Of a DNA stretch of 32,000 nucleotides, positions 2,998 to 23,217 are shown in pieces; position 1 is the stretch's first letter, and each line of letters starts with the position of its first letter. The translations under genes and the position numbers were made by a program. The DNA comes from Microcystis aeruginosa NIES-843 (lineage in GTDB: Bacteria > Cyanobacteriota > Cyanobacteriia > Cyanobacteriales > Microcystaceae): positions 1,170,001-1,202,000 of the forward strand of contig NC_010296.1 of NCBI RefSeq assembly GCF_000010625.1, in the 5' to 3' direction. The notes under the pieces are model-generated. The model was not told the origin of the DNA. It ran no database searches and worked only from the letters and a program-made list of their open reading frames with translations.

Positions 2998-4515
2998 CTA
3001 AATACCTAGTTTTTGCAATGTTAGTAAACGTTCTTTACTAAACTGCTCGTACACTGTTTTCAGATGAGTAATATTTTCCTCCTCTGTTTCCAAAGTTTTC
3101 CCATCTTTAACCACTTTTTTGCCTTGACTTGCCAAAATTTGCCAAACAAATTGTACTGCATCTTGGTTAGAGGATTTAGCCAAGAGGAATAATTGTTCTA
3201 AACGATTGACCACTACTCCAGTACCAATCAAAGGAGAAGCTAAAAAGCTTAATTCCTCACTATAGACTGCTTTCGCTTTCACTGCATTATTAAAAGCATC
3301 AGTAGATGGTTTCCGTTGTTGGCAAGTTTGCTCATCGACAGCAGGATGAATATAGCCAATACCAGTTAAAATCATAAGAGCTTGGTAAAGACCATTTAAG
3401 TTAATATTTGAGGTTTTGGGGTGATTTTGCAGTTGCAGTAAAGTTTGGGGAGATTCCGCCAAAACCTGACAAATTGGCTGATAAATTGCCTCCTGTAACT
3501 TAACTTCTCCCATGGGAAACTGCTGCTCGAACTTGATATTTGCGGGATTAACCAGCAGAGCAAACCGGGTTTCTTGTAGTTGTTTAAGCTGTTCTTGGTT
3601 GGTTAAACTTAAGGAGCCTCGAATAAAAATATCACGGCGAAATTGATTGTTAAGAAAGAAATCTCGCACCACTTCCCGATAGATTGGGTCGCTGATTTTG
3701 GCTAATTTCTCTTGAGCTGCTGGGGAGAGATTGACCGCATCAATATGGTCATTAATATGGGCAGAACCCACATATTTAAGTTTCGCATCCTCTAATTCTT
3801 TCGCTACTTCATCGAAGTAAAAAGAATTCCATTCCTGATTAAAATACTCGTGAGCTAAATAATAACGATTTTGTTCCTTCAGGCGCTCGTAACGATTTTT
3901 TAAAATTGGATTTTGGGCAAAATAACTAGCATTAGCTTCTAATAATTCTCCTGTAAAATTAAGTGCCTGTTCAATGCGGGTTAAAATTGGTTCGGAACTG
4001 TGTTGACCATGACGTAACATTAAAGCTTGCATCGGCATCGCTGCTGACCAACCCGGAAGGGCATTATAGGAGATATAAACTAATCCCCCTACCTTGAGAT
4101 TGCGGAGCATAAAATTAACTATTGCTTGGCGATTTTTGGCACTAATCCAGCTATAAATTCCGTGCAGGCTGATGAAGTCAAATTGAGGTAAATCTCGCTC
4201 TAAAAATTCCTCAAAACTATCATCAAAGAAAAGAATATTCTTCATTCCCGCCTTGGCCGCTAAATCTCTAGCCGTGGCGATATGGCTAGGATTGAAATCA
4301 TTGGCATAAAATTGGGCGTGGGGATAGGTAGCCGCTAGAATATTCGTGGTAAAACCCTGACCACAGGCCAGTTCACAATAGGTAAATTCTTGGCTGGAAT
4401 CGGGGGGTTGAATCGATTTAATCAGAGTGGCTAAACCTAATTTTAGGGGACTTAACTCGCCGTAAAAACCGCTAGTGTAGTTAACTTCCAATACATATCC
4501 TTCTGTCCAACTCAT
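2998..4515 (-). CDS. Class I SAM-dependent methyltransferase with long C-terminal 'methyltransferase regulatory'-type extension
   Basis: 505-aa ORF with SAM motif I ELACGQGFTTNILAA..ANDFNP and downstream FDFISLHGIYSWI. The domain architecture is assigned from memory of PF10119-type predicted methyltransferases. Confidence 0.7.
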   Translation of the reverse strand: MSWTEGYVLEVNYTSGFYGELSPLKLGLATLIKSIQPPDSSQEFTYCELACGQGFTTNILAATYPHAQFYANDFNPSHIATARDLAAKAGMKNILFFDDSFEEFLERDLPQFDFISLHGIYSWISAKNRQAIVNFMLRNLKVGGLVYISYNALPGWSAAMPMQALMLRHGQHSSEPILTRIEQALNFTGELLEANASYFAQNPILKNRYERLKEQNRYYLAHEYFNQEWNSFYFDEVAKELEDAKLKYVGSAHINDHIDAVNLSPAAQEKLAKISDPIYREVVRDFFLNNQFRRDIFIRGSLSLTNQEQLKQLQETRFALLVNPANIKFEQQFPMGEVKLQEAIYQPICQVLAESPQTLLQLQNHPKTSNINLNGLYQALMILTGIGYIHPAVDEQTCQQRKPSTDAFNNAVKAKAVYSEELSFLASPLIGTGVVVNRLEQLFLLAKSSNQDAVQFVWQILASQGKKVVKDGKTLETEEENITHLKTVYEQFSKERLLTLQKLGI

Positions 4516-4706
4516 AGATTTTCCTCAAATATAATGACAATTCCTAAAATTAAGACTTGATTATACAGGAAAAGAGCCATGTCCCCTAGATTTTTGTGGG
4601 TGACAGCAAGGAGAAAAAATTATACAATGCCTATTAATACTAGAGTATTAACCTTTTAGCCAAACGATTCGGCAATTGCCAATAAACCCTAGAAGCGAGA
4701 TTTCTC

Positions 4707-5618
4707 GTGAAAACTGACAGTCTCTTTTACCAAATCTTCCTGCGCTTTCCCGACAGTTTCTTTGACCTAATCGGACAACCGCAACCGGGAGCAGCAAACT
4801 ATCAATTCACCTCCCAAGAGGTGAAACAACTCTCTTTCCGTCTCGATGGCTTATTTATACCACTCAGAGAAGATAGTCAGCAACCCCTCTACCTAGTGGA
4901 AGTGCAGTTCCAAGCGGACGACACCCTCTACTATCGACTTTTTGCGGAATTGTTCCTGTTTCTAAAACAATATCGACCACCTCACCCCTGGCAAATTGTC
5001 GTCATTTATCCCCATCGTGGGGTGGAACGGGAACAATCCCTACATTTTGGCGAAATCCTCAATTTATCAAGCGTTAGACGCATTTATCTCGATGAATTGC
5101 CCCAGGTGTCTCATCCCTCCTTAGGAATCGGTGTGATTAAATTAGTAGTAGAGTCGGAAACGGCAGCGGTGAGGACTGCTCAAACCCTAATCGAGCGGAC
5201 CAGAGAAGAAATCACCGACCAGTCCAGTCAACGGCAGTTAATTGACCTAATCGAAAGTATCATCATTTACAAATTCCCCCAGAAAAGTCGCGAGGAAATT
5301 GAAGCTATGTTTGGACTAAGTGATTTAAAACAAACGAGAGTCTATCAAGAGGCACTGGCCGAAGGAGAAGAACGGGGTCTAGAACGGGGTCTAGAACGGG
5401 GTTTAGAACGGGGTCTAGAACGGGGTCTGCAAGAGGGGGAACGTCTGGTGGTGGAAAACCTGCTCCGAGTCCGTTTTGGTGAGTTAGACCCACCACTGCA
5501 AGCTATTATCAGCCGGATTTTACAATTGTCCCCGGAAGAATTTACTCCTTTACTCCTCCATTGTTCCAAGCAGGAACTCTTAAAGCGATTTCCCCCAGAA
5601 AAGTCGCGAGGAAATTGA
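4707..5618 (+). CDS. Rpn-family (YhgA-like, PD-(D/E)XK) recombination-promoting nuclease/putative transposase homolog with GLER repeat and C-terminal DUF4351 module
   Basis: GTG start. The N-terminus MKTDSLFYQIFLRFPDSFFDLIG...ANYQFTSQEVKQLSFRLDGLFIP...LYLVEVQFQADDTLYYRLFAE...IVVIYPHR...RRIYLDEL matches the cyanobacterial Rpn/DUF2887 pattern. The C-terminus VENLLRVRFGELDPPLQAIISRILQLSPEEFTPLL matches DUF4351. Confidence 0.8.
   Translation: MKTDSLFYQIFLRFPDSFFDLIGQPQPGAANYQFTSQEVKQLSFRLDGLFIPLREDSQQPLYLVEVQFQADDTLYYRLFAELFLFLKQYRPPHPWQIVVIYPHRGVEREQSLHFGEILNLSSVRRIYLDELPQVSHPSLGIGVIKLVVESETAAVRTAQTLIERTREEITDQSSQRQLIDLIESIIIYKFPQKSREEIEAMFGLSDLKQTRVYQEALAEGEERGLERGLERGLERGLERGLQEGERLVVENLLRVRFGELDPPLQAIISRILQLSPEEFTPLLLHCSKQELLKRFPPEKSRGN
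5307..5618 (+). CDS. Candidate in-frame internal short isoform (RpnS-like, 103 aa) of the Rpn-family gene
   Basis: The in-frame ATG at 5307 lies 9 nt downstream of GAGGAA, inside the 35-bp junction repeat. The same SD-like site plus ATG starts the two stand-alone cassettes downstream. Confidence 0.35.
   Translation: MFGLSDLKQTRVYQEALAEGEERGLERGLERGLERGLERGLQEGERLVVENLLRVRFGELDPPLQAIISRILQLSPEEFTPLLLHCSKQELLKRFPPEKSRGN
5370..5429 (+). repeat. 12-bp coding VNTR (GAACGGGGTCTA; ERGL), 5 units
   Basis: Direct reading; each unit contains an XbaI-like TCTAGA. Confidence 0.9.
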
Positions 5619-5640
5619 AGCTATTACACCCTTATCAAGG

Positions 5641-5668
5641 GTAGGGTTAATTCATGAATTAACCCTAC
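5641..5668. repeat. 28-bp perfect palindrome GTAGGGTTAATTCATGAATTAACCCTAC at cassette joint 1
   Basis: Self-complementary on direct reading. It sits between two copies of the 35-mer. Confidence 0.95.
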
Positions 5669-5704
5669 TACTTCCCCCAGAAAAGTTGCGAGGAAATTGA
5701 AGCT

Positions 5705-6112
5705 ATGTTTGAACTAAGTGATTTAAAACAAACGAGAGTCTATCAAGAGGCACTGGCCGAAGGAGAAAAACAAGGTCTAGAACGTGGTCTGCAAGAAGGT
5801 CTAGAACGGGGTCTAGAACGGGGTTTAGAACGGGGTCTAGAACGGGGTCTAGAACGGGGTCTAGAACGGGGTCTAGAACGGGGTTTAGAACGGGGTCTAG
5901 AACGGGGTCTAGAACGGGGTCTGCAAGAGGGGAAACGTTTGGTGGTGGAAAACCTGCTCCGAGTCCGCTTCGGTGAGTTAGACCCAGAAATTCAAGCTAT
6001 TATCAGCCGGATTTTACAACTGTCTCCGGAAGAATTTACTCCTTTACTTCTCCATTGTTCCAAGCAGGAACTCTTAAAGCGATTTCCCCCAGAAAAGTCG
6101 CGAGGAAATTGA
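5705..6112 (+). CDS. Stand-alone DUF4351 cassette (duplicate of the 3' third of the Rpn-family gene), 135 aa
   Basis: Intact ORF, near-identical to 5307..5618 apart from GLER unit number and a few substitutions (MFE, EKQ, GKRL, DPEIQ). It is preceded by GAGGAA-N9-ATG. Confidence 0.6.
   Translation: MFELSDLKQTRVYQEALAEGEKQGLERGLQEGLERGLERGLERGLERGLERGLERGLERGLERGLERGLERGLQEGKRLVVENLLRVRFGELDPEIQAIISRILQLSPEEFTPLLLHCSKQELLKRFPPEKSRGN
5768..5923 (+). repeat. 12-bp coding VNTR, 13 units
   Basis: Direct reading; the ORF is 96 nt (8 units) longer than the 5307..5618 equivalent. Confidence 0.9.
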
Positions 6113-6135
6113 AGCTATCACCACCCTTATCAAGG

Positions 6136-6163
6136 GTAGGGTTAATTCATGAATTAACCCTAC
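6136..6163. repeat. Second copy of the 28-bp palindrome at cassette joint 2
   Basis: Identical to 5641-5668 and in the same context (CCCTTATCAAGG-palindrome-TAC-35-mer). Confidence 0.95.
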
Positions 6164-6199
6164 TACTTCCCCCAGAAAAGTCGCGAGGAAATTGAAGCT

Positions 6200-6583
6200 A
6201 TGTTTGAACTAAGTGATTTAAAACAAACGAGAGTCTATCAAGAGGCACTGGCCGAAGGAGAAAAACAAGGTCTAGAACGGGGTCTGGAACAAGGTCTGGA
6301 ACAAGGTCTAGAACGGGGTCTAGAACGGGGTCTAGAACGGGGTCTAGAACGGGGTTTAGAACGGGGTCTAGAACGGGGTCTAGAACGGGGTCTGCAAGAG
6401 GGGGAACGTCTGGTGGTGGAAAACCTGCTCCGAGTCCGTTTCGGTGAGTTAGACCCACCACTGCAAGCTATTATCAGCCGGATTTTACAATTGTCCCCGG
6501 AAGAATTTACTCCTTTACTCCTCCATTGTTCCAAGCAGGAACTCTTAAAGCGATTTCCCCCAGAAAAGTCGCGAGGAAATTGA
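6200..6583 (+). CDS. Stand-alone DUF4351 cassette, 127 aa (chimeric between copies 1 and 2)
   Basis: Intact ORF. Its 5' end resembles cassette 2 (MFE..EKQ) and its 3' end resembles the parental gene (GERL..DPPLQ). It is preceded by GAGGAA-N9-ATG. Confidence 0.6.
   Translation: MFELSDLKQTRVYQEALAEGEKQGLERGLEQGLEQGLERGLERGLERGLERGLERGLERGLERGLQEGERLVVENLLRVRFGELDPPLQAIISRILQLSPEEFTPLLLHCSKQELLKRFPPEKSRGN
6263..6394 (+). repeat. 12-bp coding VNTR, 11 units (includes two EQGL variants)
   Basis: Direct reading; the ORF is 72 nt (6 units) longer than the 5307..5618 equivalent. Confidence 0.9.
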
Positions 6584-6638
6584 AGCTATCACCACCCTTA
6601 TCAAGGGGGGAAGGGAGGGTTTCCTTCGAGAATAAACG

Positions 6639-6667
6639 AAAAAAGACCACCCTTTTTCTGGGTGGCC
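6639..6667 (-). terminator. Rho-independent terminator for the RTX/DUF4214 gene (possibly bidirectional)
   Basis: Minus strand reads GGCCACCC-AGAAAAA-GGGUGGUC followed by UUUUUU, 36 nt after the stop at 6703. The plus-strand reading also gives a hairpin followed by TTTCTCT. Confidence 0.6.
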
Positions 6668-6702
6668 TTTCTCTAAACTATTAGCTTAAAACCAATCGGG
6701 GT

Positions 6703-8811
6703 CTAAGCAAAGTTAACCGAGGTCAGCGTCAAATCATCAGTGAGTTGGATAAACAAATCACCAGCATCTACTACGTCTATGGCGGAATTATTTGTTCCCA
6801 GAACGAAGGTGTTATCTTTGAAGAGATCCTCTGCCCCAGTGTAGGTAAACGCAGCCAGTGCGTTTTTGCCAATATTAAACGAAACCGCTTTGGCGGCATC
6901 TAGTAAAGTGTCCTGTTTAGCTTCGAAAGTACCCAAGAACTGGGTAGAAGTAAAGCCAACTGCCTTCAGGTTGAGGACATCACCCGCCACCTGAAAATCG
7001 GTAATGGTATCGAAGGCAATGGTACTGTCGAAGTTCGAGTCAGCAATACTCTTATACACGAAGGTATCATTGCCAGTGCCAGGACCACCAGTTAAGGTGT
7101 CAGCAGAAGCGCCACCAGTCAGGGTGTCATTCTTGGCGCCACCTTCCAAGGTGTCTTTTAAAGCTCCACCGATGATATTCAAGGTACCATTGGTTTCCAA
7201 GCTGCCATCGTATGTAAGTTTTGAAACCGTGAAAGAGGAGGCATCAACGGTGGCAGACTTGCCACTGGCAACGAAGGAGTCATTGGGGTTAAGAACCGTA
7301 TTAACAAAGGACGTTTGCTTGACGATAACCGTCTCCACATTCGTGACTCGATTTAGGGCGAGAATACTTGTCTCGTCTCCAAGGCTGGCGGTTATGGTAT
7401 CCTCACCGTCACTGCCGTTGATGGCGACACCGACCAATTGGTTGGTAATTGCCGTCAAGGTGAAGGAGTCATCGGACTTACCACCGACAATCTGTTTGAC
7501 ACTAAATGGATCAACTTCTGTAGAAAGAATGTTGGCCAGATTGAGGGTCAGCTTACCGGTCAAAGCAGTGGCATCCAATTGAGCGGTGGAGTTTCCGCGA
7601 GCCATCTGAACAGCACCATCAATGGTGAGGTTCTTGTCACCACTGATGACGAAATTAGTATTTTCACCAGTCTGCGTATCGCGTATGGTCGGATTGGTGG
7701 TGGTATCACTCGCTTTGAGGACGCTATCGGCCTTAACCACGATGTTGATCTGACTGGCGTTGTTCTGGAAACGAGTGTCTTTAATAATTAGATTATCCAC
7801 TAGCCCATCGACAATTCTCGTCCCTGCTACCGTACCGTTTAGGTTAATGGTAGTTTGGCTGTTTTTATTCGTCTGTAGTACCGTCAGGGTCCCAGCGTAG
7901 CCTTCCGCTAGATTAAGGGGGTGCTTTTCAGAAGTGAGAACTGTTATGTTACCCGTGACAAATTCTAGAGTCTTGACATCAGTGATGTTAGCGATATCAA
8001 CAACACCACCGGGGGAACCCGTGAGTTTGATGTCCTCGATCTTACTGATAAAGGGGATGGTTTGGAAATCAAAGACATCGGGCAGGATGGTCGCCGTTAA
8101 GACATCATTATCGGAGGTACTGGGGTCTTGGATAACGCTGCCATCCAAGAAAACTGTACCGTTGATCTGATCGTTAGCGGTGGAGAGAAACTTATCGGCA
8201 GGGGAAACATGGGTGGAAGCGGCGGCTGTTAAAACGGCTCCTTGTTCTAACAGGGTGAAGGTAGTACCCGTGCCACCACCGATAATATCAATGATCGCCT
8301 GCTCGATGGCATCTTCAGCATCGGCAACGCTTTCGTCGGTGAAAGTCACCGTGTCGATGATTTGCGATGAGGTGGCAAATAGGGAAGCAGTGAAAGGAAT
8401 GCCCGCATTAAGTGCTTCTTGGGTAAATTGCAGGGCTATATCGGCACGGTTTTGGAGAGCGACCCTGTCGGTTCCTTGCGCTCCTTGAGCCACTGCGAGG
8501 ACAAATTCCGCCACAGCCTCAGGAGAGCTATCCTGTTCGAGAACACCTGACCAGTACTCTAGTCCAGCGTCGTCCGCATCACGACCAAAGGCATTCTGAT
8601 AGATTTCATTAATAAATGCTACGGGGTCGCCTAGGGTGGGAGATGCCAAGAAGGGGTAAAGGGATTTAGCCTCTGGGGAGGCACCGAACTGGGCGGCCAT
8701 CTCCTCTATGGTTACATCTTGGCTCTGCCAAAAGGTTAGGCCCTGTGGATCAGGGGAGCGGTTAAAGTAGATGACGTACAAGCCGACGATCGAATTTTGA
8801 TCTACAGTCAT
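6703..8811 (-). CDS. Large secreted/surface protein: two N-terminal DUF4214 repeats, Thr/Asn/Gly-rich beta-type middle, RTX GGxGxD nonapeptide repeats near C-terminus (T1SS-substrate-like)
   Basis: 702-aa ORF. DUF4214 units: IVGLYVIYFNRSPDPQGLTFWQSQ and INEIYQNAFGRDADDAGLEYWSGVL. RTX repeats: LEGGAKNDTLTGGASADTLTGGPGTGNDTFVY. There is no Cys and the composition is acidic, as in RTX/S-layer-like proteins. Confidence 0.75.
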   Translation of the reverse strand: MTVDQNSIVGLYVIYFNRSPDPQGLTFWQSQDVTIEEMAAQFGASPEAKSLYPFLASPTLGDPVAFINEIYQNAFGRDADDAGLEYWSGVLEQDSSPEAVAEFVLAVAQGAQGTDRVALQNRADIALQFTQEALNAGIPFTASLFATSSQIIDTVTFTDESVADAEDAIEQAIIDIIGGGTGTTFTLLEQGAVLTAAASTHVSPADKFLSTANDQINGTVFLDGSVIQDPSTSDNDVLTATILPDVFDFQTIPFISKIEDIKLTGSPGGVVDIANITDVKTLEFVTGNITVLTSEKHPLNLAEGYAGTLTVLQTNKNSQTTINLNGTVAGTRIVDGLVDNLIIKDTRFQNNASQINIVVKADSVLKASDTTTNPTIRDTQTGENTNFVISGDKNLTIDGAVQMARGNSTAQLDATALTGKLTLNLANILSTEVDPFSVKQIVGGKSDDSFTLTAITNQLVGVAINGSDGEDTITASLGDETSILALNRVTNVETVIVKQTSFVNTVLNPNDSFVASGKSATVDASSFTVSKLTYDGSLETNGTLNIIGGALKDTLEGGAKNDTLTGGASADTLTGGPGTGNDTFVYKSIADSNFDSTIAFDTITDFQVAGDVLNLKAVGFTSTQFLGTFEAKQDTLLDAAKAVSFNIGKNALAAFTYTGAEDLFKDNTFVLGTNNSAIDVVDAGDLFIQLTDDLTLTSVNFA

Positions 8812-16879: not shown

Positions 16880-16922
16880 GTAAAAAGCTAGGTGTTAAAA
16901 ATTGTCAGTTTCCCCCTAACCC

Positions 16923-17044
16923 TAGGGTTGATTCATAGTAGGGTTGATTCATAGTAGGGTTGATTCATAGTAGGGTTGATTCATAGTAGGGTTGATTCAT
17001 AGTAGGGTTGATTCATAGTAGGGTTGATTCATGAATCAACCCTA
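16923..17044. repeat. 16-bp tandem repeat TAGGGTTGATTCATAG x6 ending in the 26-bp perfect palindrome TAGGGTTGATTCATGAATCAACCCTA
   Basis: Units start at 16923, 16939, 16955, 16971, 16987 and 17003; the palindrome is at 17019-17044. The array ends 44 bp upstream of the first Uma2 start. Confidence 0.95.
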
Positions 17045-17087
17045 CCCCCCTTAAGGAGATTCAATTAAGTTTTTTCTAGAGATTATC

Positions 17088-17654
17088 ATGATTGCTACCA
17101 AAGAAAAATTATATACCTTTGCGGAATATTTAAATTATCAGGACTCCACAGATAATAAATACGAATTATTTAACGGAGAATTAATTTCTATGCCTCCCGC
17201 TAGTGGCTTTCATGCTTTGATACTTAGATATATATTTAAGGTGTTAGAAAGGGAAATAGAGAGGCTACAATTGGACTGGCAAGTTATGCCTGCTACGGTG
17301 GGAATTCGCACCGATAAAGCTAAATCGAGAATCCCAGACTTAATGATTTTAACTGCTGAACAATGTCAAGAGATTAGAAATATGACCGCAGCAGTGATTG
17401 AATTTACTCCCCTCTTAGTTGTAGAAATTGTTAGCCCCAATAATGCCGACGATGACTACCGTTATAAACGTTCAGAATACGCAGTGAGAGGCATTCCTGA
17501 ATACTGGATTATCGATCCTATTGCTCTAAAAATATCAGTTTTAACCCTGATTTCGGGATTTTATGAACTGGCAGAATTTAATCAGGAAGATAGGATAATA
17601 TCGGTGACATTTCCCGATTTACAATTAACTCCTCAAATGGTCTTTGAATACTAA
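17088..17654 (+). CDS. Uma2-family (DUF820) PD-(D/E)XK endonuclease-like protein, paralog 1
   Basis: 188 aa. Motifs: YELFNGELISMPPASGFH, IPDLMIL, VVEIVSP, DDYRYKRSEYAVRGIPEYWIIDP. Confidence 0.8.
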   Translation: MIATKEKLYTFAEYLNYQDSTDNKYELFNGELISMPPASGFHALILRYIFKVLEREIERLQLDWQVMPATVGIRTDKAKSRIPDLMILTAEQCQEIRNMTAAVIEFTPLLVVEIVSPNNADDDYRYKRSEYAVRGIPEYWIIDPIALKISVLTLISGFYELAEFNQEDRIISVTFPDLQLTPQMVFEY

Positions 17655-17674: not shown

Positions 17675-20265
<2,591 letters not shown>

Positions 20266-21051: not shown

Positions 21052-23217
21052 AGCTAAACGGCGCTTAACCTGCATGATCCAACAGCTATAACCCTTTTGG
21101 AGTCTATATCGGTGATCCGAACCCACATTCCGCACCCTCAACTGTCACATAAGCTGTCCCCCGCCAGAGACTTGAGTAAAAATACTTAGCTGGTGAAGGT
21201 TTTCTCGGTGGCCGTTAGGGGGAGCTTGAGACCCCTAATTATGAAAAAATAGGAATTGTTGGAAAACTTAGGCAGTGGGCTGTTCGACCATGAATCAATC
21301 AACAGAAATTGAAGTCAAAAATCTAGACCATCTGGGATTAGTAGCCGGAATTATCGATGAAATAGGAATCGTTGAAATTATCAACGAACAAGTCTCAATT
21401 GAGCGAGGAGAAATTGTCACAGCGGGGCAAGTCGTGAAAGCAATTATCCTGAATGGATTGGGATTTGTCTCCCGAGCCTTGTATTTATTTCCTCAATTTT
21501 TTGAAGATAAAGCAACCGAACATTTGCTGGGAGAGGGCATCGAACCAAAACACCTGAATGATGATAAAATTGGTCGAGTAATGGACAAACTTTATCAACT
21601 TAATGTTTCGGTCATTTTCCTACGGATTAGTTTAGCGGCCGTGAAAAAATTTGGTGTAGCAACCGAGAACTCCCATTTAGATTCGACTTCTCTATCAGTA
21701 GAAGGAGAATATAAAAAGGAATACCCAACAGTAGAAATCCTGAAATCAGGAGCAGTGGGAGAAGAAATTGAAACCAGACAACAGCCAATAAAAATTACCT
21801 ACGGATACTCCCGCGACCGAAGACCTGACTTAAAACAATTTATGATTGACTTAATCGTAAGTGGGGATGGAGATGTACCTTTATTCCTGAAAGTAGGGGA
21901 CGGAAATGAAGCGGACAAAGCGGTTTTTGGTCAAATCGCCCGAGAATTTAAAAAACAAGTTGACTTTGACAGTTTAATAGTCGGCGATAGCGCCCTCTAT
22001 AGCAAAGAGAATTTAAAACTAATGAAAGAAATGCGTTGGTTGTCTCGAGTACCATTAAGCATTAAAGAGGCTCAAGAGTTAGTCGATAGCATCTCAGAAA
22101 AAGAGTTAACCGATTCAGAAATACCGGGTTATTCCTGGCGGGAAACCATCTCTAACTATGGGGGGATAGAACAAAGATGGTTGCTAGTTGAAAGTCAAGC
22201 TAGACAAGAATCAGACTTGAAAAAATTAGAGAAAAAAATCGAGCAGGAAAAGAAAACAGCCCAAGAAAAAATCCGGCAACTATCCCGAAGAGAATTTGAG
22301 AATAGAGCGGTGGCGTTGGCGATAGTCAAAGGATTATCTGACTCCTTAAAATATCATCAGTTAACGGAGATTAAAGTCAATCTCATTCCGCCTGAGTCTC
22401 AGCAGTCAAAACTCAAATCAAAAGACGATTTACCCTCTCAAAGCTATCAAGTTCAAGCCGAATTAGAGTTGAATTTGGCAGCGATTGAGAGGCTCAAGAA
22501 ACGAGCAGGACGATTCGTTTTAGCAACTAACAATTTGGAGAAAAAACGATTAAGCAGTGAGGATATACTCAAAAAATATAAGGGGCAACAAGCTCCAGAA
22601 AGAGGATTTTCTTTTCTCAAAGACCCCTGCTTTTTTGCCCACAGTGTCTTTCTCAAATCTCCCCATAGAATCGAGGTCATGGCCATGCTCATGGGCTTGT
22701 GCCTGTTGGTTTATACTATTGGTCAAAGACAACTTCGTCTGAATTTAAAACAGCAGGAGACGGGACTGAAAAATCAGTTGGGTAAGTTAACTGACCGACC
22801 AACATTACGCTGGATATTTCAGAACTTTCAAGGGATTCATCTCCTACGTATTCAAGACAATCAAAAGATTAGCAACTTAACGGATGAGAGGCGCAACATT
22901 TTGAGATTTTTTCCCAAACCTTGCCAAGAATATTATCTCTTATCTTGACCAGATGGATTGACTTCAAGGGGTGACAAAACAAAGCGAGCAACTGGAACAT
23001 CTCCCCCTAGATGTTAAGTCTGATTGACCGGTCATTCTCAACAAGCACTGTTTATTGAGAATGACCGGGGGAACTCTGAAATTTTCGGCTTAGTTGCCGG
23101 CAGCTTGCCGCCAACTCACTCCTCTAGATAAGTATTTTGACTCGCGCCCCTTCCTCTTTTGAGACGTTGTGACACTTAGGGTGCGGAATGTGGGTCCGAA
23201 GTAAAAGCCGTTTAGCT
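21052..23217 (+). mobile_element. IS1634-like (IS4 superfamily) insertion sequence inside intron copy A
   Basis: Boundaries come from comparison with the uninterrupted copy B, whose empty site is GTAGCC-TA-GTTACT. Outer 11-bp inverted repeat: AGCTAAACGGC / GCCGTTTAGCT. TA is present on both sides (21050-51, 23218-19). Inner perfect 17-bp inverted repeat: 21122-21138 / 23178-23194. Confidence 0.75.
21290..22948 (+). CDS. IS1634-family DDE transposase
   Basis: The N-terminus MNQSTEIEVKNLDHLGLVAGIIDEIGIVEIIN is typical of IS1634-family transposases, and an IS4-type DDE region follows. ATG 21290 is preferred over GTG 21275. Confidence 0.75.
   Translation: MNQSTEIEVKNLDHLGLVAGIIDEIGIVEIINEQVSIERGEIVTAGQVVKAIILNGLGFVSRALYLFPQFFEDKATEHLLGEGIEPKHLNDDKIGRVMDKLYQLNVSVIFLRISLAAVKKFGVATENSHLDSTSLSVEGEYKKEYPTVEILKSGAVGEEIETRQQPIKITYGYSRDRRPDLKQFMIDLIVSGDGDVPLFLKVGDGNEADKAVFGQIAREFKKQVDFDSLIVGDSALYSKENLKLMKEMRWLSRVPLSIKEAQELVDSISEKELTDSEIPGYSWRETISNYGGIEQRWLLVESQARQESDLKKLEKKIEQEKKTAQEKIRQLSRREFENRAVALAIVKGLSDSLKYHQLTEIKVNLIPPESQQSKLKSKDDLPSQSYQVQAELELNLAAIERLKKRAGRFVLATNNLEKKRLSSEDILKKYKGQQAPERGFSFLKDPCFFAHSVFLKSPHRIEVMAMLMGLCLLVYTIGQRQLRLNLKQQETGLKNQLGKLTDRPTLRWIFQNFQGIHLLRIQDNQKISNLTDERRNILRFFPKPCQEYYLLS

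Follow-up and report, generated by a model that had tools for sequence, protein, structure and literature searches.

The rpn genes of Escherichia coli (RpnA-E and RpnP2; PMC10400941, PMC5350276) give rise to a toxic long form (RpnL) and to an inhibitory short form (RpnS) made from an internal start (Zhong et al. 2023, PMC10400941). Both forms contain a helix of four-residue repeats whose number varies among strains (PMC10400941). RpnC-long is blocked only by a short form of equal repeat number, and a mismatch of a single repeat is enough to abolish inhibition (PMC10400941 Fig. 4D; PMC10400984). Separate RpnS genes, annotated DUF4351, lie downstream in the pairs rpnE-ypaA and rpnC-rpnCSs (Zhong et al. 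2023, PMC10400941; repeated in the commentary by Koonin, PMC10400984). Such rpnSs copies can be gained and lost, or fused to the N-terminal domain, and the YpaA protein is made in E. coli (PMC10400941). Here we compare with these systems a locus of Microcystis aeruginosa NIES-843, found in a stretch of 32,000 nucleotides (contig NC_010296.1, positions 1,170,001 to 1,202,000; hereafter the window), in which an rpn-type gene is followed by two stand-alone copies of its own C-terminal module. From sequence comparison and modeling, we read it, with a probability of roughly 0.7, as an Rpn long/short system of Microcystis whose RpnSs-type duplicates are translated specificity variants.

An rpn-type gene followed by two copies of its C-terminal module

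The coding features of the locus are as follows (aa, amino acids; a tetrad is one four-residue repeat).

4707..5618, + strand: rpnL-type gene, GTG start, 303 aa, intact open reading frame (ORF); nuclease domain, linker helices, long tetrad-repeat helix and small helical tail
5307..5618, + strand: predicted RpnS-type short product, 103 aa, from an internal in-frame ATG; 5 tetrads; 12-nt repeat at 5369-5428
5705..6112, + strand: stand-alone module 1 (RpnSs-type), 135 aa, intact; 13 tetrads; 12-nt repeat at 5774-5922
6200..6583, + strand: stand-alone module 2 (RpnSs-type), 127 aa, intact; 11 tetrads; 12-nt repeat at 6269-6393; mosaic

The coordinates of the three ORFs and of the in-frame ATG had been proposed in an earlier note on this DNA, and all of them hold, with every frame intact. 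The last 312 nt of the gene at 4707-5618 recur as the two downstream ORFs. The parent, module 1 and module 2 contain 5.0, 12.4 and 10.4 copies of the 12-nt unit, respectively, which gives 5, 13 and 11 tetrads of the type (E/Q)(R/Q)GL that form a long helix. Outside the repeats, the stand-alone modules are 94-97% identical to the parent module. Module 2 is chimeric, as the note had recognized: 3' of its repeat tract, 10 of the 11 informative sites side with the parent, and its 5' sites together with a KQ block side with module 1. Both modules lie directly 3' of the rpn gene, begin at a duplicated internal start and are closest to the module of their own parent, the features that define RpnSs genes.

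The same layout, with a same-strand copy directly downstream that carries a duplicated internal Shine-Dalgarno (SD) sequence and ATG, is closest to its own parent and differs from it in tetrad number, is found in rpnE-ypaA and rpnC-rpnCSs. In E. coli K-12, the rpnE stop codon is immediately followed by a second copy of the internal SD and ATG (AAGGAGAGATTAATG), at which ypaA starts; its product contains one tetrad (KLEG) more than RpnE-short. The window differs from these pairs in having two tandem copies with far larger expansions (13 and 11 tetrads versus 5), in the hairpin/palindrome spacers that separate its units and in a 35-bp box that also ends every module. Judged by its sequence, then, the architecture is of the known E. 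coli type, with two copies and much larger expansions, and the view of the earlier note that the arrangement had not been described has to be given up in light of the downstream RpnS genes of PMC10400941 and PMC10400984.

The long gene encodes a predicted Rpn-family nuclease

The N-terminal part of the 303-aa protein contains the following region and residues.

4713..5312, + strand: DUF2887 / PD-(D/E)XK nuclease region, aa 3-202, Pfam match
4716-4718 (D4), 4845-4847 (D47), 4899-4901 (E65), 4905-4907 (Q67) and 4935-4937 (R77), + strand: putative catalytic residues, from conservation among homologues and comparison with RpnA

Pfam assigned aa 3-202 to DUF2887 (E = 2.8e-79), and the NCBIfam model TIGR01784 ([quoted passage not shown]) matched aa 2-253 with 81.8 bits, which exceeds the curated family cutoff of 52.1 for Rpn nucleases. 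E. coli RpnA also matches TIGR01784, at 160.9 bits. The link to E. coli Rpn is drawn from this common model and not from pairwise similarity; the Pfam family of the nuclease is DUF2887 here and not Transposase_31. DUF2887 has been classed with the YhgA-like PD-(D/E)XK proteins, which have an ExQ motif and a helical helix-turn-helix (HTH) tail (Laganeckas et al. 2010, PMC3045609). RpnA activity needs D11, D63, E82, Q84 and R94 (Kingston et al. 2017, PMC5350276), and D4, D47, E65, Q67 and R77 are their counterparts in the 303-aa protein; a predicted PD-(D/E)XK domain with the residue pattern D...ExQ...R is common to both proteins. The spacing of the residues is 18/2/10, compared to 19/2/10 in RpnA, and all five are invariant or at least 90% conserved among 39 homologues. 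The pairing of D47 with D63 was made from the motif (xDGLF versus xDVLW) and the spacing; MAFFT sets D47 a few columns off D63.

An AlphaFold2 model of the protein (predicted local distance difference test score, 77) consists of an alpha/beta N-domain, linker helices, a long helix (211-257) and three short helices. Its best Foldseek matches in the PDB were NucS/EndoMS, EcoO109I, BstEII and BamHI, all weak (E = 0.1-0.5; template-modeling score, 0.2-0.36). The Rpn/YhgA-like N-terminal region claimed by the earlier note is therefore upheld by the family profiles, with structure matches to PD-(D/E)XK enzymes that are weak. The nearest proteins are Microcystis orthologues of 90-94% identity, which bear the same name as the TIGR01784 family; exact-sequence look-ups of the 303-aa and 135-aa proteins returned no match, and the orthologues were found via homology. 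Taken by its profiles and residues, the gene at 4707-5618 is a predicted PD-(D/E)XK nuclease gene of the Rpn/DUF2887 family.

Sequence searches of the PDB with the full protein and with one module gave matches at noise level or to low-complexity sequence only. Matches to FliH, Yae1_N and a B12-binding domain were discarded as artefacts of the charged repeat. The old "transposase" annotation was set aside, following Zhong et al.: terminal inverted repeats and target duplications are missing, and the duplications are tandem.

A conserved internal start and a predicted short product

GAGGAA, followed by 9 nt and ATG, stands in frame at 5292-5309, where the C-terminal module begins; E. coli rpn genes likewise have an in-frame internal SD and ATG at this point. 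The comparison of this position drew on 80 cyanobacterial loci found by scanning genomes, on the other loci and on the window gene. The methionine at the head of the module is invariant (90 of 90 full cyanobacterial genes), and each of the 59 distinct upstream sequences has an SD core (GGAG, GAGG or AGGA) 5-17 nt 5' of it. In 56 of these 59, the last two letters of codon -5 are AG, irrespective of the residue encoded (E, K, Q or R). At codon -4, GAG is used in 50 cases and GAA in 8, yet GAA makes up 72% of the Glu codons in these genes. Since the SD is thus kept by codon choice at -5 and -4, the synonymous sites are under selection for a ribosome-binding site, which constitutes strong comparative evidence of an internal start. 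The long/short organization proposed in the earlier note is supported by this pattern.

In the model of the 103-aa short form, a helix (11-57) that contains the repeats is followed by three short helices. The strain-variable four-residue repeats of this long helix and the tandem duplications at the locus are further likenesses to E. coli Rpn. The tetrads begin at residue 22 after the Met, slightly beyond the range of 8-20 given for E. coli Rpn by Zhong et al. A long helix followed by a small HTH-like bundle is also seen in the E-helix and HTH of gamma-delta/Tn3 resolvase, to which homology was proposed by Laganeckas et al. 2010 (PMC3045609). The module profile matched the Tn3 resolvase 5cy1 weakly and below significance (E = 0.22), and the Microcystis protein, unlike the resolvase, has no serine-recombinase catalytic domain.

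Six copies of a 35-bp box delimit the modules

A 35-bp box, TTCCCCCAGAAAAGTCGCGAGGAAATTGAAGCTAT, is present six times (starts at 5274, 5590, 5672, 6084, 6167 and 6555) and was found 0 times in 100 shuffled sequences. The boxes and other signals of the locus are as follows.

4600..4628, + strand: promoter-like site GTGACA-17-TACAAT 5' of the rpn gene; consensus match, the sole + strand one in 4400-6800
5274..5308, + strand: box copy 1, within the rpn gene; codes FPQKSREEIEAM; SD-like GAGGAA at 5292-5297, 9 nt before ATG 5307
5590..5624, + strand: box copy 2, 3' end of the rpn gene; frame FPPEKSRGN*; ATG changed to ATT; also in a strain without a stand-alone copy
5625..5671, + strand: spacer 1, small hairpin ACCCTTATCAAGGGT; perfect 28-nt palindrome at 5641-5668; RNA fold z-score -2.5
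5672..5706, + strand: box copy 3 (1 mismatch), SD and start of stand-alone module 1
6084..6118, + strand: box copy 4, 3' end of stand-alone module 1
6119..6166, + strand: spacer 2, same hairpin as spacer 1; 28-nt palindrome at 6136-6163
6167..6201, + strand: box copy 5, SD and start of stand-alone module 2
6555..6589, + strand: box copy 6, 3' end of stand-alone module 2
6639..6673, both strands: terminator-like hairpin between the array and a convergent RTX-like gene

Three copies stand directly 5' of the ATGs at 5307, 5705 and 6200, each with GAGGAA, 9 nt and ATG. These had been reported in the earlier note, which missed the other three: each of these, read in another frame as FPPEKSRGN*, closes one of the ORFs at its 3' end and has lost the ATG. 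All Microcystis orthologues end in FPPEKS(R/Q)GN, and the 3' box is present even in locus L001, which has no stand-alone copy; this copy is therefore ancestral. The positions of the promoter-like site and of the terminator-like hairpin would fit a single transcript for the rpn gene and the stand-alone copies, which is possible. A search of 4400-6800 against Rfam found no RNA family.

Related short repeats occur elsewhere. At 16920-17045 of the window, about seven 16-nt units (GTAGGGTTGATTCATA) stand in tandem and end in a 28-nt palindrome, which is two compensating changes apart from that of the rpn spacers. This palindrome is one of a family of short repeats dispersed in Microcystis, and arrays of a similar kind lie 3' of the rpn locus in L002 and L003. 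Just 5' of the rpn start, AAACGATTCGGCAATTGCCAATAA at 4662-4685 reads KRFGNCQ*. In other strains (L003, L085-L089), stand-alone modules end in this tail where they run straight into the 5' region of the next rpn gene. The common A(A/G)CGATT may be a junction at which modules and rpn genes are joined in arrays.

Stand-alone copies recur, appear conserved and are mostly mismatched in repeat number

Amplification of the module into independent genes, which the earlier note had seen in this locus, recurs among cyanobacteria. In about a quarter of the cyanobacterial loci (about 20 of 84), a complete rpn gene has at least one module-only ORF downstream of it, beginning at the same Met; those with stand-alone modules include L028, L029, L031, L033, L036, L040, L045, L047, L048, L057, L079, L081 and L082. 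Oscillatoria sp. HE10JO (L029) has two downstream copies and one upstream copy, and Nostoc sp. CMAA1605 (L045) has two downstream copies. Each stand-alone copy is closest to its own parent, which indicates that the copies arose independently. Two types of tail follow the repeat helix in the module alignment: an HTH-like tail of about 30 aa in Nostocales and Oscillatoria, and a longer DUF4351-type tail in Microcystis and Gloeothece. Most modules of non-Microcystis cyanobacteria have the short tail, whose pattern resembles that of E. coli RpnA-S.

Among the module-only ORFs in which the module is complete, 25 of 25 have kept the ATG and 22 of 25 the SD core. The pooled ratio of nonsynonymous to synonymous substitutions (dN/dS) between parent and copy is 0.28 (22 pairs) and keeps this value when the Microcystis pairs are left out; at least 0.5 would be expected if one partner drifted freely. 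The stand-alone copies thus look functional and appear to be under purifying selection. Tetrad number differs in 21 of the 22 parent/stand-alone pairs, including pairs that have almost no point substitutions (L045; proportion of synonymous differences, 0). Decayed module relics are found in L056 and L068.

Among Microcystis strains, the contents of the site between the methyltransferase gene and the RTX-like gene vary.

rpn gene alone at the site: L001
rpn gene and one stand-alone module: L002, L006, L013
rpn gene, stand-alone module and second rpn gene: L003, L085-L089
module alone, nuclease domain deleted: L092, L093

The gene and a stand-alone module with the same junction are present in at least 10 independent Microcystis assemblies (including L002, L003, L006, L013 and L084-L089), so this type of array is real; two consecutive stand-alone copies were seen, among the Microcystis loci, in the window only. 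Orthologues differ in length mostly by the number of GLE(R/Q) units. Among 72 cluster representatives of full-length Microcystis genes, 8, 26, 30, 7 and 1 have 1, 2, 3, 4 and 5 tetrads, respectively, and stand-alone copies preceded by palindrome and box have 3, 7, 8, 10, 11, 11, 12, 12, 12, 12 and 13. The generalization that stand-alone copies always have more tetrads (7-13 versus 1-5 at syntenic Microcystis loci) was dropped, because module-only ORFs with 1-5 tetrads were found; the rule is "different," not "longer." Some of the short module-only ORFs are rpn genes without the nuclease domain (L092). Three polymorphic markers occur in every combination, in full-length and short forms alike, which indicates that segments of the module are shuffled by recombination.

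Several smaller features of these loci were recorded. In L092 (2133-2764) and L093 (2501-2788), a short module with SD and ATG follows a nuclease domain cut to 44 residues and an insertion, so that it stands as an "orphan" antitoxin-like gene. A small insertion coding for "...VKLITQNLEEP..." interrupts or precedes rpn sequences in L001 (4870-5040), L006 (5013-5080) and L092 (2265-2450) and may be a miniature mobile element that targets the rpn gene. One 33-nt G/C-hairpin element (CACCCCCCTTATCAAGGGGGGAAGGGGGGATCRA) lies 3' of the 3' box in every strain, and about six tandem copies of it follow the stand-alone module in L002 (6366-6550); the element may have truncated an older copy of the module.

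Proposed working of the locus and competing explanations

In the reading that we prefer, the SD and ATG at 5307 would give a 103-aa short form of the RpnS type. As the comparison of sequences shows, a unit of 35-bp SD box, module, stop codon and hairpin spacer was duplicated in tandem into two stand-alone RpnSs (ypaA-like) genes, which have since traded segments with the parent as well as with other alleles. By analogy with E. coli Rpn, the long form would be a toxic DNA endonuclease, and its own short form would restrain it by pairing along the repeat helix, for which an equal number of repeats would be needed. We infer that both stand-alone genes are translated from their retained SD and ATG. 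They may also supply material for recombination at the common 35-bp box, where a deletion between box copies would join the nuclease domain, in frame, to another module.

If the matching rule of E. coli holds, proteins with 13 and 11 tetrads should not inhibit a 5-tetrad nuclease, and the two stand-alone products probably do not act as cognate inhibitors of the long form encoded beside them. This bears directly on the dosage buffering suggested in the earlier note, according to which the two genes would add further cognate antitoxin and so shift the RpnS:RpnL ratio upward for the nuclease of this locus. The near-identity of the modules to the parent outside the repeats, the retained SD and ATG and the production of YpaA in E. 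coli (PMC10400941) all speak for it. However, a difference of one repeat abolishes inhibition in E. coli, and the mismatch seen here extends to 21 of the 22 cyanobacterial pairs and to E. coli rpnE/ypaA as well, so that we regard dosage buffering as unlikely.

The stand-alone copies could instead be transient, functionless products of tandem duplication and unequal crossing-over. Strains differ in whether such copies are present, in how many there are and in their order, relics exist (the boxes without ATG at 5590, 6084 and 6555; the decayed modules of L056 and L068), and gain and loss of rpnSs were noted by Zhong et al. (PMC10400941). Neutral by-products would not be expected to show a pooled dN/dS well under 0.5 or the near-complete retention of ATG and SD core described above, and a stand-alone lineage, MFE...EKQGLERGLQEGL, is common to several Microcystis species; this explanation is rather unlikely. 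As the mismatch argues against dosage buffering and the signals of selection argue against junk, expressed specificity variants are favored.

Another function is conceivable, in which the stand-alone modules would not be antitoxins for the neighboring nuclease at all and would make up a silent or semisilent store of alternative repeat-length modules. The copies would then act mainly as donors: by recombination at the 35-bp boxes, one of them would take the place of the nuclease gene's own C-terminal module and switch its repeat number and specificity. Every module is flanked by identical 35-bp boxes, module 2 is a mosaic, and the marker combinations are found in full-length and short forms. 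Long-tract donors, however, seem not to reach the expression site intact, since 0 of the 72 Microcystis full-length cluster representatives have more than 5 tetrads; the direct-repeat layout favors irreversible deletion, and ordinary allelic recombination between strains accounts equally well for the mosaics. We consider a module store unlikely. If it were real, the store would switch which short form silences the nuclease, a cassette-based diversification of a toxin-antitoxin-type defense; module recombination would possibly be driven by the recombination-promoting activity of the nuclease itself, and the near-universal mismatch in repeat number would be what the arrangement is for, not a result of drift. 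That the array was mis-assembled from one module or from mixed-strain reads is hardly credible, although the units of about 480 bp are 93% alike and a consecutive stand-alone pair was not seen in other Microcystis loci: the three units can be told apart by consistent substitutions and by their repeat numbers, a single stand-alone copy with this junction recurs in the independent assemblies, and double copies exist in the Oscillatoria and Nostoc loci.

Several observations weigh against our assignment of the locus to the Rpn long/short system with translated specificity variants. Aligned pairwise, the 303-aa protein resembles RpnA at no more than noise level (BLASTP E = 0.022; hhalign near noise). 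The DUF4351 tail, the second part of the domain assignment in the earlier note, stayed below the PF14261 gathering threshold of 25 bits, with 18.6-21.5 bits for four proteins and 18.6 for the long gene; homologues at about 60% identity do have precomputed PF14261 matches, so the kinship of the Microcystis tail with DUF4351 is probably real. This longer tail shows four helices in the model, compared to three in RpnA-S (7TH0). The RpnA-S structure was not recovered: Foldseek with the 103-aa model gave no match to 7TH0 (best E = 2.8), and a profile of 14 modules searched against PDB sequences did not retrieve it either, small helical bundles being hard to match. A scan of 4400-6800 found no + strand promoter-like site before either stand-alone copy. 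Gene conversion from the selected parent could partly account for the low dN/dS, and the repeat-matching rule, which is known from E. coli RpnC for a change of one repeat only, may fail in Microcystis. The neighborhood is not a defense island, and PADLOC gave no defense-system match above noise (a weak "putative invertase" match fell on the repeat region only), so the label of a defense locus proposed in the note finds no support in its context.

On the reading as an Rpn long/short system, the comparative evidence for the internal start would carry the gene-within-gene toxin-antitoxin model beyond enterobacteria, to the DUF2887 proteins of cyanobacteria, a large family that is abundant in bloom-forming Microcystis. 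Other cyanobacterial DUF2887/DUF4351 loci share the order of a full gene followed by one or two module-only ORFs from the conserved Met, nearly all of them mismatched in tetrads; most of them differ in having a short HTH-type tail, compared to the DUF4351-type tail of Microcystis and Gloeothece. A question raised by the E. coli work is thereby sharpened: a repeat-matched short form is needed for inhibition, yet the downstream copies are almost always mismatched. This systematic mismatch between parent and copy is the most useful lead of the analysis, and the locus, with one parent and two intact copies of 5, 13 and 11 tetrads, constitutes a convenient natural test set.

Genomic context and other features of the window

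The neighbors of the locus encode methyltransferases, glycosyltransferases, an RTX-like/DUF4214 protein, a DNA ligase (LigA) and peptidases. A scan of viral contigs for the module found no phage-borne relatives, which leaves the idea of phage-encoded RpnS mimics without support. Just after the repeat array at 16920-17045, two adjacent tandem genes of 188 aa each (17088-17654 and 17675-18241) belong to the Uma2 "putative restriction endonuclease" family (Pfam E of about 1e-36 each). Farther downstream, at 21275-22948, lies an insertion sequence-type transposase gene of 557 aa (DUF4277 and DDE_Tnp_1).

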